From: a virus
Taxonomy: Duplodnaviria > Heunggongvirae > Uroviricota > Caudoviricetes
Length of the DNA stretch: 8,089 nucleotides
IMG/VR virus record: IMGVR_UViG_2558860290_000019
Direction: 5' to 3' (one strand)
Part shown: piece by piece, positions 1-7,789 of the stretch
How the letters are laid out: every line of letters starts with the position of its first letter
How positions within the stretch are numbered: the first letter of the stretch is position 1
The notes under the pieces: generated by a model
Told to the model about the DNA's origin: nothing
The model's input: the letters and a program-made list of their open reading frames with translations, nothing else
The model's database searches: none
Translations under genes and position numbers: made by a program

Positions 1-1152
1 TTATTTAAGAGTTCTTCCTATATTTATGCTTTTTTTCTCTATGGTTATATGCATGAGATATGCAAGAGTTGTAACAATAGAGAACGCAGCTATCAATGAT
101 ACTAGATAGCTAAAACCAGATCCAGTTAGGAATCTGATTATGCAATACCCTATCACTGAGTGGAGAGCATAAAAAGAATAACTTATATTTGCAAGAAATG
201 AGAGTGGTCTTACCTCTTTAAAGTAATCATTTAATAACATTGCGATTAAAAATACAATATAACCATAAATATAGTTTACTCCAACCTCAATAAATTGGTT
301 GCTCTGTGGGCCGCATTTCCACGTCATTCCTACAAGGATAGCTGTCATCATTGTTGAAGCTATGAACTCGCCTGTATTAATTCGCTTTTCAAAATAAAAG
401 TTAAGCAGAATACCAAGAGTCATATATGAAATGTACATGAATTCTATCTTTAACGCATCGAAAGAAAAGAATCCCTGCTGACTTGAGCCAAGCCCTAAGT
501 TTGCTGTAAAAAATGTAATGGCGAATACAGATATTGGGATGCATAATAACTTTATTATATTTGCACTTCTTATTGCCCCATATACCAAAAGACAAGTTAT
601 ATAGAATTTTATCTCTATAGATAGGGTCCAGTTTACATAATCAATGCTTCCATAGTTGAATATAGATGCAAGCAATGTAATATTGTATATAAAACGATCC
701 ATTGAGATACTATTTGCAGAACCCCAAAAGATGTTGCTTGCGGTAAATACTGCAAGCATTATAAGAGAACATACTATGTATGTAGGGTATATTCTTATTA
801 TCCTTGCAAATAGGTAACCAAGTGGAGACTTGTTTCTCATTGAATATGTTAAAACAAACCCGCTAATTATGAAGAATATAGATACCCCAAACGGACCATA
901 ATTAAAATATGGTAAAGGAGGAAGTATTGATATGTAATAAGCTGAATTTCCAGTGCTCACGTCAGGAGCGCCGGTCACAGAGCTGATGAATGTAGGATTT
1001 AGTGAGTATATGCCAAGCCAGTGGACTGCAACTACACTCAAAAAAGCTATAGCCCTTAACTGTGAAGCGAAGATGACTCTGCCTTTCTTTTTTGTATCCA
1101 CCACTTCATGGATGGCATTGCTTTGAATGCCATCCTGCGCTTGTTGCGCCAT
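1..1152 (-). CDS. Acyltransferase family 3 (OafA/Oac-like) integral membrane protein; AT-rich cargo gene at the P2 Z/fun-equivalent slot
   Basis: Complete minus-strand ORF (stop TAA at 1..3). Two in-frame ATGs: 1170 has no Shine-Dalgarno, while the ATG at 1152 (Met7) is preceded by AAGAGG (1159..1164) with a 6-nt spacer, so 1152 is preferred (383 aa; 389 aa from 1170). The protein is very hydrophobic with multiple predicted membrane segments and carries Acyl_transf_3-type motifs: LRAIAFLSVVAVH (Arg...His in the first helix), GVSIFFIISGF, ARIIRIYPTY and NWTLSIEIKFY (compare the WSLSVE motif). The gene is far more AT-rich than the tail genes and is divergent from FI. Confidence 0.8.
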   Translation of the reverse strand: MAQQAQDGIQSNAIHEVVDTKKKGRVIFASQLRAIAFLSVVAVHWLGIYSLNPTFISSVTGAPDVSTGNSAYYISILPPLPYFNYGPFGVSIFFIISGFVLTYSMRNKSPLGYLFARIIRIYPTYIVCSLIMLAVFTASNIFWGSANSISMDRFIYNITLLASIFNYGSIDYVNWTLSIEIKFYITCLLVYGAIRSANIIKLLCIPISVFAITFFTANLGLGSSQQGFFSFDALKIEFMYISYMTLGILLNFYFEKRINTGEFIASTMMTAILVGMTWKCGPQSNQFIEVGVNYIYGYIVFLIAMLLNDYFKEVRPLSFLANISYSFYALHSVIGYCIIRFLTGSGFSYLVSLIAAFSIVTTLAYLMHITIEKKSINIGRTLK

Positions 1153-1256
1153 TTCTAACCTCTTTTCCATTTAAAATTTAATCTAAGTAGAGAAAAAACA
1201 AAATGGGATTATTCATCATTGTTGATTAAAGATAAAGAGGGTATGTACAAAACTAA

Positions 1257-1483: not shown

Positions 1484-2674
1484 ATGAGTGACTATCATCA
1501 CGGCGTGCAGGTGCTGGAGATTAACGACGGCACCCGCGTCATTTCCACCGTATCCACCGCCATTATTGGCATGGTCTGCACGGCCAGCGATGCGGATGCG
1601 GAAACCTTCCCCCTCAATAAACCGGTGCTGATTACCAATGTGCAGAGCGCAATTGCAAAGGCCGGTAAAAAAGGCACGCTGGCGGCGTCGTTGCAGGCCA
1701 TCGCTGACCAGTCAAAACCGGTCACCGTTGTCGTGCGCGTGGAAGACGGAACCGGCGACGACGAAGAAACGAAACTCGCGCAGACCGTTTCCAATATCAT
1801 CGGCACCACTGACGAAAACGGTCAGTACACCGGACTGAAAGCCCTGATGGGCGCTGAGTCGGTTACCGGCGTTAAACCGCGTATTCTCGGCGTACCGGGA
1901 CTGGACACCAAAGAGGTCGCCGTCGCACTGGCATCGGTATGCCAGGAACTGAATGCCTTCGGGTATATCAGCGCATGGGGTTGTAAAACCATTTCCGAGG
2001 TGAAAGCCTACCGCCAGAATTTCAGCCAGCGTGAGCTGATGGTCATCTGGCCGGATTTCCTCGCATGGGATACGGTTACCAGTACCACCGCCACCGCGTA
2101 TGCCACCGCCCGTGCGCTGGGTCTGCGCGCTAAAATCGACCAGGAGCAGGGCTGGCATAAAACGCTGTCCAACGTCGGGGTGAACGGTGTTACCGGCATC
2201 AGTGCATCCGTCTTCTGGGATTTGCAGAAGCCCGGCACTGATGCTGACCTGCTGAACGAGTCAGGCGTCACTACGCTGATTCGCCGCGACGGTTTCCGTT
2301 TCTGGGGTAACCGTACCTGCTCTGATGACCCGCTGTTCCTCTTTGAAAGCTACACACGCACCGCGCAGGTACTGGCCGACACGATGGCTGAGGCGCACAT
2401 GTGGGCTATTGATAAGCCCATCACCGCAACGCTGATTCGCGACATCATTGACGGCATCAATGCCAAATTCCGTGAACTGAAAAACAACGGTTATATCGTG
2501 GATGGCTCATGCTGGTTCAGCGAAGAATCCAACGATGCGGAAACCCTCAAGGCCGGAAAACTGTATATCGACTACGACTATACCCCGGTGCCTCCTCTTG
2601 AAAATCTGACCCTGCGCCAGCGTATTACTTCCAGATACCTGGCAAGTCTGGTCACTTCGGTTAACAGCAATTAA
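1484..2674 (+). CDS. FI: Contractile tail sheath protein (P2 gpFI family)
   Basis: 396-codon ORF with GGAG (1472..1475) 8 nt upstream of the ATG. N-terminus MSDYHHGVQVLEINDGTRVI; length and position as first gene of the FETUD order match P2 gpFI (396 aa as I recall). Immediately followed by the tube gene. Confidence 0.93.
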   Translation: MSDYHHGVQVLEINDGTRVISTVSTAIIGMVCTASDADAETFPLNKPVLITNVQSAIAKAGKKGTLAASLQAIADQSKPVTVVVRVEDGTGDDEETKLAQTVSNIIGTTDENGQYTGLKALMGAESVTGVKPRILGVPGLDTKEVAVALASVCQELNAFGYISAWGCKTISEVKAYRQNFSQRELMVIWPDFLAWDTVTSTTATAYATARALGLRAKIDQEQGWHKTLSNVGVNGVTGISASVFWDLQKPGTDADLLNESGVTTLIRRDGFRFWGNRTCSDDPLFLFESYTRTAQVLADTMAEAHMWAIDKPITATLIRDIIDGINAKFRELKNNGYIVDGSCWFSEESNDAETLKAGKLYIDYDYTPVPPLENLTLRQRITSRYLASLVTSVNSN

Positions 2675-2686
2675 GGAGCCTGACCG

Positions 2687-3205
2687 ATGGCAATGCCGCG
2701 CAAACTCAAGTTAATGAACGTCTTTCTGAACGGCTACAGCTATCAGGGCGTTGCAAAGTCCGTCACGCTGCCAAAACTGACCCGTAAGCTCGAAAACTAT
2801 CGCGGTGCGGGGATGAACGGCAGCGCACCGGTGGACCTCGGCCTTGATGACGATGCGCTGTCAATGGAGTGGTCGCTCGGGGGCTTCCCGGATTCGGTTA
2901 TCTGGGAGCTTTACGCCGCAACCGGTGTGGATGCTGTGCCGATTCGTTTTGCAGGCTCTTACCAGCGTGACGATACCGGCGAAACGGTGGCCGTCGAGGT
3001 GGTCATGCGTGGACGTCAGAAAGAAATCGACACCGGCGAGGGTAAACAGGGAGAAGACACCGAGTCGAAAATCTCCGTGGTCTGCACCTATTTCCGGCTG
3101 ACGATGGACGGTAAGGAGCTGGTCGAAATCGACACCATCAACATGATTGAGAAGGTGAACGGCGTCGACCGGCTGGAGCAACACCGCCGCAATATCGGCC
3201 TGTGA
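2687..3205 (+). CDS. FII: Tail tube protein (P2 gpFII family)
   Basis: 172-codon ORF with GGAG (2675..2678) 8 nt upstream of the ATG. Size and position match P2 gpFII (172 aa as I recall). Confidence 0.93.
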   Translation: MAMPRKLKLMNVFLNGYSYQGVAKSVTLPKLTRKLENYRGAGMNGSAPVDLGLDDDALSMEWSLGGFPDSVIWELYAATGVDAVPIRFAGSYQRDDTGETVAVEVVMRGRQKEIDTGEGKQGEDTESKISVVCTYFRLTMDGKELVEIDTINMIEKVNGVDRLEQHRRNIGL

Positions 3206-3212
3206 TTTTCAT

Positions 3213-3233
3213 CCGGTCAGCCTGGCTGACCGG
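3213..3233 (+). terminator. GC-rich stem-loop (9-bp stem, 3-nt loop) between FII and E with no U-tract; possible partial terminator/attenuator or mRNA 3' stabiliser
   Basis: CCGGTCAGC (3213..3221), CTG, GCTGACCGG (3225..3233), a perfect inverted repeat. It is followed by TTAACCCC, not a canonical U-run. It lies 8 nt after the FII stop and about 29 nt before the E start. Confidence 0.3.
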
Positions 3234-3261
3234 TTAACCCCGATTCATAAGTGAGAAAACC

Positions 3262-3537
3262 ATGAACAAAGAAAATGTGATTACCCTGGACAATCCGGTC
3301 AAACGTGGTGAGCAGGTTATCGAACAGGTCACGCTGATGAAACCCAATGCGGGGACGCTGCGCGGTGTCAGTCTGGCTGCGGTCGCAAACTCCGAAGTCG
3401 ATGCACTGATTAAAGTGCTGCCGCGCATGACGGCACCGATGCTGACCGAGCAGGAAGTCGCCGCGCTGGAACTGCCTGACCTTGTGGCGCTGGCCGGTAA
3501 GGTGGTCGGTTTTTTGTCGCCGAACTCGGTGCAGTGA
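3262..3537 (+). CDS. E: Tail assembly chaperone (P2 gpE family)
   Basis: 91-codon ORF (MNKENVITLDNPVKRGEQVIEQV ... GFLSPNSVQ). Size and position match P2 gpE. A TTTTTTG run lies near its 3' end. Confidence 0.9.
   Translation: MNKENVITLDNPVKRGEQVIEQVTLMKPNAGTLRGVSLAAVANSEVDALIKVLPRMTAPMLTEQEVAALELPDLVALAGKVVGFLSPNSVQ
3510..3516 (+). promoter_or_regulatory. Slippery heptamer T_TTT_TTG in the E frame; candidate programmed frameshift site for E+E'
   Basis: In the E frame the codons are GGT TTT TTG, giving the X_XXY_YYZ pattern. Programmed -1 frameshifting at TTTTTTG to make gpE+E' is the established P2 mechanism. See the findings for the frame anomaly in this sequence. Confidence 0.55.
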
Positions 3538-3691
3538 CGTTTCCAAAAAAATACTCTCGGTCGATGACCTGATGGCGGATGTGGCAGTGGTATTTCACTG
3601 GCCGCCATCAGAACTGTATCCCATGAGCCTGACCGAACTCATCACATGGCGCGAAAAGGCGCTCCGGCGAAGTGGAAACACGAATGAGTAA
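3515..3691 (+). CDS. E': E' reading frame (C-terminal extension of gpE, expressed only as an E+E' frameshift fusion); in this sequence it lies in the +1 phase relative to E
   Basis: Open frame with no convincing own start, overlapping the 3' end of E and ending at TAA 3689..3691, which overlaps the T start. C-terminal part reads LSVDDLMADVAVVFHWPPSELYPMSLTELITWREKALRRSGNTNE. The 5' boundary is nominal, because the true fusion point depends on the shift site. Confidence 0.6.
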   Translation, partial: CRRTRCSDVSKKILSVDDLMADVAVVFHWPPSELYPMSLTELITWREKALRRSGNTNE

Positions 3692-6132
3692 CAATGTAAA
3701 ATTACAGGTATTGCTCAGGGCTGTTGACCAGGCATCCCGCCCGTTTAAATCCATCCGCACAGCGAGTAAGTCGCTGTCGGGGGATATCCGGGAAACACAA
3801 AAATCACTGCGCGAGCTGAACGGTCAGGCATCCCGTATTGAGGGATTTCGCAAGACCAGTGCACAGCTCGCCGTGACTGGTCATGCACTTGAAAAGGCAC
3901 GGCAGGAGGCCGAAGCCCTTGCCACACAGTTTAAAAACACCGAACGTCCGACACGTGCTCAGGCGAAAGTGCTGGAATCCGCAAAGCGTGCGGCGGAGGA
4001 CTTACAGGCGAAATATAACCGCCTGACGGATTCCGTTAAACGCCAGCAGCGGGAACTGGCCGTTGTGGGAATTAATACCCGCAATCTTGCACATGATGAG
4101 CAGGGACTGAAAAACCGTATCAGTGAAACCACCGCACAGCTTAACCGTCAGCGTGACGCGCTGGCGCGTGTCAGTGCGCAACAGGCAAAACTTAACGCAG
4201 TAAAACAGCGTTATCAGGCAGGCAAGGAACTGGCCGGAAATATGGCCTCAGTGGGCGCTGCCGGTGTGGGGATTGCGGCGGCGGGAGCGATGGCCGGAGT
4301 TAAGTTGCTGATGCCCGGTTATGAGTTTGCGCAGAAAAACTCAGAATTGCAGGCCGTGCTCGGAGTGGCAAAAGACTCCGCCGAAATGACCGCACTACGC
4401 AAACAGGCGCGCCAGCTCGGCGACAATACCGCCGCTTCGGCGGATGATGCGGCCGGTGCACAGATAATCATCGCGAAAGCGGGTGGGGATGTTGATGCCA
4501 TTCAGGCGGCAACGCCGGTCACGCTGAATATGGCGCTGGCGAACCGCCGCACGATGGAAGAAAACGCCGCCCTGCTGATGGGGATGAAATCCGCCTTTCA
4601 GCTTTCAAACGATAAGGTCGCTCATATCGGGGATGTTCTCTCCATGACGATGAACAAAACCGCCGCCGATTTTGACGGCATGAGCGATGCGCTGACCTAT
4701 GCCGCACCTGTAGACAAAAAATGCCGGTGTCAGCATTGAAGAAACCGCCGCAATGGTCGGGGCGCTGCATGATGCAAAAATCACAGGCTCAATGGCGGGG
4801 ACGGGAAGCCGTGCCGTGTTAAGCCGCCTGCAGGCACCGACGGGAAAAGCATGGGATGCACTCAAAGAGCTTGGTGTGAAAACCTCAGACAGCAAGGGAA
4901 ACACCCGGCCAATATTTACCATTCTGAAAGAAATGCAGGCCAGTTTTGAGAAAAACCGGCTCGGTACTGCCCAGCAGGCTGAATACATGAAAACTATTTT
5001 CGGGGAGGAGGCCAGCTCAGCCGCCGCCGTGCTGATGACTGCCGCCTCAACCGGAAAGCTGGACAAACTGACCGCTGCGTTTAAAGCCTCAGACGGGAAG
5101 ACTGCCGAGCTGGTAAATATCATGCAGGACAACCTCGGCGGTGACTTTAAGGAGTTTCAGTCCGCTTATGAGGCGGTGGGGACTGACCTGTTTGACCAGC
5201 AGGAAGGCGCACTGCGTAAGCTCACACAGACGGCCACAAAGTATGTGTTAAAACTCGACGGCTGGATACAGAAAAACAAATCACTGGCGTCAACCATTGG
5301 CATCATTGCCGGTGGCGCGCTGGCGCTTATTGGCATCATCGGTGCCATTGGTCTTGTAGCCTGGCCGGTTATCACCGGCATCAATGCCATTATCGCGGCA
5401 GCAGGCGCAATGGGGGCAATCTTCACGACGGTTGGCAGTGCTGTTATGACGGCCATCGGGGCGATTAGCTGGCCGGTTGTGGCTGTGGTGGCCGCCATTG
5501 TCGCCGGGGCGTTGCTTATCCGTAAATACTGGGAGCCTGTCAGCGCATTCTTCGGCGGTGTGGTTGAAGGGCTGAAAGCAGCATTTGCGCCGGTGGGGGA
5601 ACTGTTCACGCCACTTAAGCCGGTGTTTGACTGGCTGGGTGAAAAGTTACAGGCCGCGTGGCAGTGGTTTAAAAACCTGATTGCCCCGGTCAAAGCCACC
5701 CAGGACACCCTGAACCGTTGCCGTGATACTGGCGTCATGTTCGGGCAGGCACTGGCTGACGCGCTGATGCTGCCGCTTAATGCGTTCAACAAACTGCGCA
5801 GCGGAATTGACTGGGTACTGGAAAAACTCGGTGTTATCAACAAAGAGTCAGACACACTTGACCAGACCGCCGCCAGAACTCAAGCCGCCACGAATGGCAG
5901 CGGTGGTTATATTCCGGCGACCAGCTCTTATGCAGGCTATCAGGCTTATCAGCCGGTCACGGCACCGGCTGGCCGCTCTTATGTGGACCAGAGTAAAAAC
6001 GAATATCACATCAGCCTGACCGGTGGTACTGCGCCGGGGACACAGCTTGACCGCCAGTTACAGGATGCGCTCGAAAAATACGAGCGGGATAAACGTGCGC
6101 GCGCCCGTGCCAGCATGATGCATGACGGTTAA
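3684..6132 (+). pseudogene. T: Tail tape measure protein (P2 gpT family), interrupted by a frameshift in an A6 run (4716..4721); possibly a homopolymer sequencing error
   Basis: N-terminal ORF from ATG 3684 (MSNNVKLQVLLRAV; the track's GTG at 3672 is less likely) ends DKKCRCQH with TGA at 4737..4739. The +1 frame is open from 4714 and reads TKNAGVSIEETAAMVGALHDAKITGSMAG through to TAA 6130..6132. Removing one A gives a continuous AAPVDKNAGVSIEE junction and an 815-codon ORF, which matches my recollection of P2 gpT length. The N-terminus is coiled-coil-like (Q/R/A-rich) and the centre has glycine-rich hydrophobic segments (GIIAGGALALIGIIGAIG), both typical of tape measure proteins. Confidence 0.8.
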
Positions 6133-6146
6133 GGAGGTGACGAAAA

Positions 6147-6626
6147 ATGATGCTCGCGTTAGGTATGTTTGTTTTTATGCGCCAGACGCTGCCACACCAG
6201 ACCATGCAGCGTGAATCAGATTATCGCTGGCCGTCAAATTCCCGTATCGGTAAACGGGATGCCTTTCAGTTTCTCGGTGTGGGTGAGGAAAACATCACGC
6301 TTGCCGGTGTGCTTTATCCAGAACTGACCGGCGGCAAGCTGACGATGACCACGCTCAGGCTGATGGCAGAGGAAGGCCGGGCGTGGCCGTTGCTGGATGG
6401 CACCGGCATGATTTACGGCATGTATGTCATCAGCAGGGTGAGTGAAACAGGGAGTATTTTCTTTGCAGACGGCACACCCCGGAAAATTGATTTTACGCTG
6501 TCGCTCACCCGCGTTGATGAATCACTGGCCGCGCTTTATGGCGATATCGGTAAACAGGCGGAATCGCTCATCGGTAAGGCTGGCAGTATGGCGACCAGAT
6601 TCACGGGTATGACGGGGGCGGGATAA
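6147..6626 (+). CDS. U: Tail protein gpU (P2 gpU family)
   Basis: 159-codon ORF with AGGAGG (6132..6137) 9 nt upstream of the ATG. Size and position match P2 gpU. Confidence 0.88.
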   Translation: MMLALGMFVFMRQTLPHQTMQRESDYRWPSNSRIGKRDAFQFLGVGEENITLAGVLYPELTGGKLTMTTLRLMAEEGRAWPLLDGTGMIYGMYVISRVSETGSIFFADGTPRKIDFTLSLTRVDESLAALYGDIGKQAESLIGKAGSMATRFTGMTGAG

Positions 6627-7789
6627 TGCTGGATGCGCTGACATTTGATGCAGGCAGTACACTGACGCCGGATTATATGCTGATGCTCGACAGCAGGGAT
6701 ATTACCGGCAATATCAGCGACCGTCTGATGAGCATGACCCTGACGGATAACCGGGGCTTTGAGGCTGACCAGCTTGATATTGAACTGAATGATGCCGACG
6801 GGCAGGTCGGGCTGCCGGTTCGTGGCGCTGTCCTGACGGTGTATATCGGCTGGAAAGGTTTTGCCCTGGTATGCAAAGGGAAATTTACCGTTGATGAGGT
6901 CGAACACCGGGGCGCGCCGGATGTGGTCACCATCCGCGCCCGGAGTGCAGATTTTCGCGGGACGCTCAATTCCCGCCGTGAAGGCTCCTGGCATGACACC
7001 ACGCTCGGTGCGATTGTTGAGGCGATAGCCTCCCGTAACAGGCTGGAAGCCAGTGTCGCGCCGTCACTGGCAGGAATTAAAATCCCGCACATCGACCAGT
7101 CGCAGGAGTCCGACGCGAAATTCCTGACCCGTCTTGCAGAACGCAACGGCGGTGAGGTGTCGGTAAAAATGGGAAAACTGTTGTTTCTCAAAGCGGGGCA
7201 GGGGGTGACGGCCAGTGGTAAAAAAATCCCGCAGGTCACCATAACCCGCAGCGACGGCGACCGCCATCATTTTGCGATTGCTGACCGTGGAGCCTATACC
7301 GGCGTAACGGCAAAGTGGTTACACACCAAAGACCCGAAGCCGCAAAAGCAGAAGGTAAAACTGAAACGCAAAAAGAAAGAGAAACACCTGCGCGCACTGG
7401 AGCACCCGAAAGCGAAACCGGTCAGGCAGAAGAAAGCGCCTAAAGTACCGGAAGCGCGCGAAGGTGAATACATGGCCGGTGAGGCTGACAACGTTTTTGC
7501 CCTGACCACGGTATATGCCACAAAAGCGCAGGCCATGCGCGCCGCTCAGGCGAAGTGGGATAAACTGCAACGGGGCGTTGCGGAGTTCTCCATCAGCCTG
7601 GCTACCGGTCGGGCAGATATTTACACGGAAACACCGGTCAAAGTGTCTGGCTTTAAGCGCGTCATAGACGAGCAGGACTGGACAATCACTAAGGTGACAC
7701 ACTTTCTGAATAATTCCGGCTTCACGACGTCCTTAGAGCTTGAGGTCAGGCTTTCTGATGTGGAGTACGAAACAGAAGATGATGAGTGA
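6626..7789 (+). CDS. D: Tail protein gpD (P2 late control gene D family, baseplate hub-like)
   Basis: 387-codon ORF whose ATG overlaps the U stop (TAATG, 6624..6628), suggesting translational coupling. Size and position match P2 gpD. Contains a lysine-rich low-complexity segment (7325..7468). Confidence 0.88.
   Translation: MLDALTFDAGSTLTPDYMLMLDSRDITGNISDRLMSMTLTDNRGFEADQLDIELNDADGQVGLPVRGAVLTVYIGWKGFALVCKGKFTVDEVEHRGAPDVVTIRARSADFRGTLNSRREGSWHDTTLGAIVEAIASRNRLEASVAPSLAGIKIPHIDQSQESDAKFLTRLAERNGGEVSVKMGKLLFLKAGQGVTASGKKIPQVTITRSDGDRHHFAIADRGAYTGVTAKWLHTKDPKPQKQKVKLKRKKKEKHLRALEHPKAKPVRQKKAPKVPEAREGEYMAGEADNVFALTTVYATKAQAMRAAQAKWDKLQRGVAEFSISLATGRADIYTETPVKVSGFKRVIDEQDWTITKVTHFLNNSGFTTSLELEVRLSDVEYETEDDE

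Follow-up and report, generated by a model that had tools for sequence, protein, structure and literature searches.

The E/E' locus of the window (the whole stretch of viral DNA analysed, 8,089 nt) is very probably a P2-type E/E+E' −1 frameshift cassette that has been disabled by a private 2-nt insertion, either a mutation or an error of sequencing or assembly. The odd phase of E' is the footprint of this private insertion rather than the product of another recoding mechanism. What was detected is a frameshift lesion in a known recoding site, and its biology is not new.

The window was identified as the tail operon of a P2-like (Peduovirus) prophage. Its alignment to P2 (AF063097) had 96.5% identity over 5,854 columns (5.85 kb) and contained just three indels, each an insertion in the window. 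The gene order FI, FII, E, E', T, U, D and the start of ogr, determined from open reading frames and alignment, was as in P2, and the same order was found with Pfam labels in near-identical contigs. The nearest relative found, contig L112, was 99.07% identical over all 8089 nt and also carries the acyltransferase gene. The features of the window are as follows.

1..1170, minus strand: acyltransferase gene (PF01757 in relatives, where the product has 383-389 aa)
1484..2674: FI, sheath gene
2687..3205, plus strand: FII, tail tube gene, a 172-aa ORF that aligns to P2 FII (PF04985 on the equivalents in relatives)
3262..3537, plus strand: E, tail assembly chaperone gene, 91 aa, phase 1, intact
3510..3516, plus strand: slippery heptamer T_TTT_TTG in the zero frame of E, near its 3' end, intact
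3516..3572, plus strand: extension in the −1 frame (phase 0), reading VAELGAVTFPKKYSRSMT and then TGA 3570..3572
3545..3553, plus strand: lesion 1, AAAAAAATA as against AAAAAAT in the nearest relatives and GAAAAAT in P2
3551..3691, plus strand: C-terminal coding part of E', displaced to phase 2, reading (I)LSVDDLMADVAVVFHWPPSELYPMSLTELITWREKALRRSGNTNE and then TAA 3689..3691, with the whole GpE domain
3684..4739, plus strand: N-terminal part of T, 351 codons in phase 0, with a premature TGA after lesion 2
4712..4714, plus strand: lesion 2, GTAGAC as against GTGGC in relatives, with G>A at 4712 and an extra A at 4714
4715..6132, plus strand: C-terminal part of T in phase 1 (ORF 4753..6132)
6147..6626: U
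6626..7789: D

The acyltransferase gene occupies the position of fun(Z) in P2, to which homology starts only at window position 1408, and is likely a lysogenic-conversion cargo gene. With FII upstream, E/E' is seen to lie between the genes for tube and tape measure.

Four of the defining features of a P2-type cassette were found in the window. E runs from ATG 3262 through ...GGT TTT TTG TCG... to its stop at TGA 3535..3537, is equal in length to P2 gpE with one residue different, and matched PF10109 (Phage_TAC_7; E=5e-12, 46 bits against a cutoff of 25). The slip site consists of a T6 run at 3510..3515 followed by G 3516 and is identical to that of P2. Downstream, phase 2, which is +1 or −2 with respect to E, is open over 3482..3691, its TAA lying 8 nt into T (ATG 3684), and contains a match to PF06528 (Phage_P2_GpE; E=6e-22) formed by residues encoded wholly downstream of the A-run. 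Position, TAC_7 domain, heptamer and GpE domain are therefore present, and the one that counts for function, an open −1 frame, is missing solely because of the private 2-nt insertion, which makes the locus a disrupted member of this class of cassette and not a different system.

In P2, a 142-aa E+E' is made beside the 91-aa E by a −1 slip, an established mechanism in which tail assembly requires both proteins (PMC3091744, PMC5009743), and the frameshift takes place at TTTTTTG (PMC3091744). In the P2 GenBank record AF063097, E has 91 aa and E+E' is entered as a joined CDS; the base that follows TTTTTTG is labelled 'site of -1 translational frameshift', and the product reads ...AELGAVTFPKNLSVDDLMADV. 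According to work by Christie and co-workers in 2002 (J Bacteriol 184:6522), P2 reportedly slips −1 in ~10% of ribosomes, and the C-terminal GpE domain of E+E' is said to be essential for tail assembly. As an observation on the record itself, its join(19430..19685,19685..19857) re-reads the T after TTTTTTG (base 19685; position 3818 of L001) to give ...GFLFAELG..., whereas with a tandem slip on T_TTT_TTG the G would be read twice, giving ...GFLVAELG...; the deposited P2 E+E' sequence may carry a wrong residue there.

The departure of the window from P2 begins only downstream of the slip site. From the slip site through TTTCC the window equals P2, after which P2 continues GAAAAAT-CTCTC, the nearest relatives AAAAAAT-CTCTC and the window AAAAAAATACTCTC. 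The pairwise alignment accordingly sets P2 TTTCCGAAAAA--TCTCTC against TTTCCAAAAAAATACTCTC in the window, and L112 and three more close relatives have CCAAAAAAT-CTCTC where the window has CCAAAAAAATACTCTC. These alignments identify two extra A bases in the window, one at 3551 (A6 to A7) and one at 3553 (T^C to TAC), situated 35 to 37 nt downstream of the slip site. The stretch before them, 3516..3544, is base for base that of P2, where it is read in the −1 frame. A net insertion of two bases moves all downstream sequence from the −1 to the +1 frame, and this is the anomaly that had been reported. Given that E' lies in the −1 frame in P2 with a spacer of 7 nt, as against 9 nt in the window, the anomaly is not chance noise of reading.

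Neither the slip site nor the opening 11 to 12 codons of the extension is altered, and with the signal intact a −1 slip should still occur in the window. Those first 11 to 12 codons of the phase 0 linker correspond to the real E' linker, and the remainder is out-of-frame read-through past the lesion. The −1 frame, which becomes open to the overlap with T once 3551 and 3553 are deleted, is not open to it in the window as written. Translated in silico, the −1 product stops after 18 codons at a length of 103 aa, keeps PF10109 and loses PF06528. Ribosomes that shifted −1 would be expected to halt at TGA 3570..3572 and release this 103-aa protein without a GpE domain, such that functional E+E' would presumably not be made, or only in traces.

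The phase problem was first raised by a sequence-only reading of the window, which placed E' in phase 2 (+1/−2 relative to E) instead of the −1 phase; on re-reading, every coordinate and every statement of phase holds. Its view of phase 0 as the real coding frame after the slip site is borne out by the P2 product, which reads ...AELGAVTFPKN LSVDDLMADV, and its suspicion that the anomaly resides in the sequence and not in the mechanism agrees with the two extra A bases relative to P2 and relatives. The further suggestion that one A is missing from a functional arrangement has to be replaced: two A bases (3551, 3553) are extra, and no relative examined has an A8 or a 10-nt form. An insertion of two and a deletion of one are equivalent in frame terms, which is why the repair by one A also restores the frame. 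Indeed, re-reading one A at 3551 (that is, adding one A) gives ...VAELGAVTFPKKILSVDDLMADV... and joins phase 0 to phase 2 as ...TFPKKILSVDDLMADV... The same reading had allowed that P2 and its relatives might share the T6 and A7 runs with E' in the window's phase; they have GA5 or A6 followed by T-C, with E' in −1.

To establish how far the arrangement is shared, the spacer from GTGACGTTTCC to CTCTCGGTCGATGA was compared. It was 7 nt in 118/118 related copies and 9 nt in the window only. All of the IMG/VR contigs (n=108), found by a flexible pattern scan that allowed 5 to 11 nt between conserved flanks, had 7 nt, reading GAAAAAT in 92, AAAAAAT in 14 and GAAAAAC in 2. The flexible-spacer scan of GTDB species genomes gave a single match, in E. 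albertii, with 7 nt too. Among phage records, 74/74 were two bases shorter than the window, their matches measuring 559 or 556 nt where the window has 561 or 558 nt. In complete E. coli genomes there were 1,814 matching places, spread over 1,580 of 5,426 genomes; none of these places was 100% identical over 3490..3610, and the best, at 98.3%, differed only by a 2-nt gap.

Searches for the lesion itself were likewise negative. A 44-mer across lesion 1 had no match in complete E. coli genomes by megablast, and a 32-mer was absent from IMG/VR and from 241 million JGI metagenome records by exact-pattern scan. The bases 3551 and 3553 were absent in 115/115 aligned relatives. No E' in the window's phase was found among the 74 phage records, the 1,814 E. 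coli places, the 108 IMG/VR contigs and 14 further contigs. A spacer of 8 nt (intermediate) or 10 nt (in-frame) occurred in none of the sets searched, which indicates that the parent was A6-T-C and that the window gained two bases rather than losing one. A parent with three extra bases in frame (A8-T-A-C, PKKIL) and later loss of one A was rejected, the 10-nt spacer being present in 0/118 copies; an A8 parent was also rejected on the grounds that it would score ~99% on 3490..3610, where the E. coli places reach at most 98.3%.

The upstream half of the signal is as constant as the spacer. The T6 form GGTTTTTTG was present in 117/118 related copies, and the P2 geometry from the frameshift site to the E' domain was kept in 117/117 copies that could be checked base by base. 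Where relatives vary past the end of E (CCG/CCA, AAT/AAC), the changes are silent in the −1 frame, which confirms it as their coding frame. The 118th copy (L073, near 7073, minus strand; IMG/VR 2627854066_000009) has a 7-nt spacer with T5 in place of T6 (GGTTTTTGTCG), which would put E itself out of frame; this is probably a homopolymer error or a mutation in a draft. Another relative, the prophage of E. coli DLI.5a (NZ_CP103972.1; 1..2383 of L110), is 97.8% identical to the window over its full length. It is a largely deleted remnant that adjoins pflB-focA and contains a fusion of two truncated genes, one for a replication endonuclease and one for a tail protein, and its tail operon still has E, E' and T intact.

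Other ways in which the GpE domain might be reached were considered. A direct programmed −2 (or +1) shift at T_TTT_TTG, similar to that of Mu, would join E to phase 2 as ...GFL-CRRTRCSDVSKKILSVDDL... Phase 2 is open over the required distance, such a product would contain both Pfam domains, and −2 and +1 shifts are documented for the tail chaperones of other phages (PMC5009743). The phase change, however, stems only from the private insertion downstream of the P2-identical stretch, and the linker of a direct −2 product would be the out-of-frame CRRTRCSDVS in place of the conserved one. By inspection, a −2 slip would move the P-site codon from UUU to GUU with a mismatch at the first position, although the A-site codon, from UUG to UUU, would pair as it does for −1. 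E' was in the phase for a direct −2/+1 shift in none of >2,000 related copies, and a phase that no relative conserves means that the window is not a Mu-like −2 system. We regard a direct shift as extremely unlikely.

Production of the GpE domain as a separate small protein, for which no frameshift would be needed, is just as hard to credit and has a very small probability. Translation would start internally at ATG 3572 (39 aa), which does lie in phase 2, or at TTG 3482, and automatic annotation of relatives includes 39- or 51-aa 'GpE family' ORFs. These 39-/51-aa calls, however, are artefacts, produced by gene finders with no model of frameshifting. E' of P2 is made as an extension of E, and it is the fusion that tethers the chaperone to the tape measure (PMC3091744, PMC5009743), whereas a free 39-aa domain would be without the E part.

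The remaining route starts from the P2-type slip. If the insertion is real, E+E' could be made at a low level by a −1 slip at T_TTT_TTG followed 29 nt later by a second −1 slip on A_AAA_AAA, or by addition of an A by RNA polymerase, to give ...TFPKK-ILSVDDL..., one residue longer than the P2 product (K-N to K-K-I). The A7 run at 3545..3551, the only one in the region, forms an A_AAA_AAA heptamer in phase 0, which is the frame that ribosomes would occupy after the first slip and from which a further −1 slip would lead back into the GpE frame. Re-pairing of the two lysine tRNAs on this heptamer would be perfect, and the double −1 product keeps PF10109 and PF06528 with scores equal to those of P2. 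In E. coli, AAA-AAA tracts have been found to allow −1 frameshifting by which 1-nt deletions are compensated (PMC1851650); for C-AAA-AAA in pDEST17 the level was 25-60%, with transcriptional slippage excluded (Belfield et al. 2007, PMC1851650). Compensatory frameshifting on indels in homopolymer runs is furthermore a recognised class (PMC5009743).

Set against this, A_AAA_AAA is reported to be much less shift-prone in E. coli than A_AAA_AAG (PMC5009743), and the yield of a double −1 product would be that of two minority events multiplied. Nothing indicates selection for a double −1 shift, since the arrangement was absent from all other sequences searched; the lesion of the window is not maintained across isolates and is private in all collections searched. 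T is frameshifted too and would need an independent +1 event, so that tail production would still fail even if E+E' were rescued. Leaky rescue of this kind is therefore considered unlikely, and the fuller proposal that the A bases are real and that functional E+E' is made by two successive −1 slips 29 nt apart (or by an A inserted in transcription) is given little credence. The sequence-only reading had put forward both a second −1 slip on A_AAA_AAA and a direct +1/−2 shift. Each is chemically conceivable, and that part stands; comparison lends them no support, the arrangement being shared with no relative.

RNA structure offers no further help to a second slip, as no well-placed stimulatory structure was found and the nearest strong stem begins 17 nt past the A-run. 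A small hairpin just past the slip site and the overall fold were no better than those of shuffled sequences (z = −0.5 in the window, −0.8 in P2). A stem of 10 bp spanning 3569..3611 did stand out from shuffles (z = −2.5) and was rejected as a stimulator on account of its poor placement, 17 nt past the A-run and about 50 nt past the T-run. This stem is a perfect inverted repeat (3569..3578 / 3602..3611; CTGATGGCGG / CCGCCATCAG) in the coding region of E', and it is conserved in P2. P2 itself is reported to lack a stimulatory structure of this kind (PMC3091744). Over 3200..3900, Rfam gave no meaningful match.

The reading of the E/E' locus as a disabled cassette is reinforced by the state of T, in which the sequence-only reading had missed a second frameshift; its presence in the same window points to lesions and not to recoding. 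Lesion 2 lies 2 nt upstream of an A6 run (4716..4721) and moves T out of phase 0 into phase 1. T is a single ORF of 815 aa in P2, in the closest relatives and in all further fetched contigs except L117. The exact variant was absent from complete E. coli genomes (megablast) and from IMG/VR and the JGI metagenomes (exact-pattern scans), and exact-protein look-up returned no record for the T fragments of 351 aa and 459 aa. A +1 slip, or the loss of one A in the A6 run, would restore T with a single Ala-to-Asp change.

The damage to the operon appears to be recent. With 4714 deleted, T becomes one ORF of 815 codons without an internal stop, and with 3551, 3553 and 4714 deleted every reading frame is restored, including the E' extension. 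The other differences from L112 comprise 57 synonymous and 12 non-synonymous changes. Together, the restorable frames and this ratio indicate a lineage that was functional, or under purifying selection, until the lesions arose very recently.

Whether the lesions belong to a recently inactivated prophage or to local errors of base calling or assembly was weighed from their distribution. Only nine positions of the window were private among about 70 to 115 aligned relatives. Three of these are in the two lesions. The remainder are six single substitutions, of which four fall on third codon positions in D and two change an amino acid of T. Each lesion cluster consists of two changes within 3 nt, and the inserted bases are all A. 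Both clusters lie at most 5 nt from a homopolymer run of at least six bases; such sites make up 2.4% of the window, which puts the chance of both clusters falling there at ~6e-4. Spontaneous mutation in E. coli has an indel-to-substitution ratio of ~1:10, and three indels among nine private changes is far above this, which was counted toward error. The clustered double changes, the A-only insertions and the nearby A-runs were taken as pointing in the same direction.

Real decay is supported by other P2-like prophages that have decayed with T split, L117 being one example, and by the DLI.5a prophage, which is largely deleted. The L117 copy (7061..9507; GCA_005393605.2, AP024126.1, the second P2-like copy there) has T split into 664-aa and 131-aa parts. 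It also lacks ogr beside pflB. Located at the chromosomal site where the relatives of the window lie, it is an independent case of a P2-like prophage in decay. On balance, we lean slightly toward error over recent inactivation.

For annotation, E/E' of the window should be treated as a P2-type −1 frameshift gene that is disrupted, T should be marked as frameshifted, and neither should be taken as evidence of +1/−2 recoding. The two lesions flag this prophage copy as either defective or locally mis-sequenced. If the record is in error, the true sequence would contain CCAAAAAATCTCTC within 3535..3560 and GTGGCAAAAAAT within 4705..4725, and the cassette would be an ordinary P2 one. If instead the double −1 shift were true, the locus would be a natural case of indel compensation by a homopolymer slip stacked on a programmed frameshift, with a product ...TFPKKILSVDDL... 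and a junction peptide ILSVDDLMADVAVVFHWPPSELYPMSLTELITWR preceded by TFPKK, and signal from the E' frame would depend on both runs (altered T-run GGCTTCCTG, altered A-run CCGAAGAAG).

Among known systems, the C-AAA-AAA tract of pDEST17 (Belfield et al. 2007) and the 'savior indels' (Atkins et al. 2016) resemble the window in having an indel at a coding A-run that is partly correctable by slippage of lysine tRNA. Unlike in those cases, correction in the window could come only after a different minority frameshift, and the adjacent gene T is broken too. Phage Mu also has its downstream domain in the +1/−2 phase relative to the upstream gene (PMC5009743), but this phase evolved in Mu, whereas in the window it results from a private 2-nt insertion and the relatives are all −1. 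The G/GT pair of lambda (Levin et al. 1993; Xu, Hendrix & Duda 2004, 2013) is comparable in its shared N-terminus, its location between the major tail protein and tape-measure genes, and a minor product made by a −1 slip (PMC5009743). It has no sequence similarity to the window and uses G_GGA_AAG, and the cassette of the window is interrupted. The likeness to P2 extends to the same FI-FII-E-E'-T-U-D-ogr operon, the heptamer, the first codons in the −1 frame and the sequence of the GpE domain; the window differs in having that domain in the +1 and not the −1 frame, and in the frameshift of its T.
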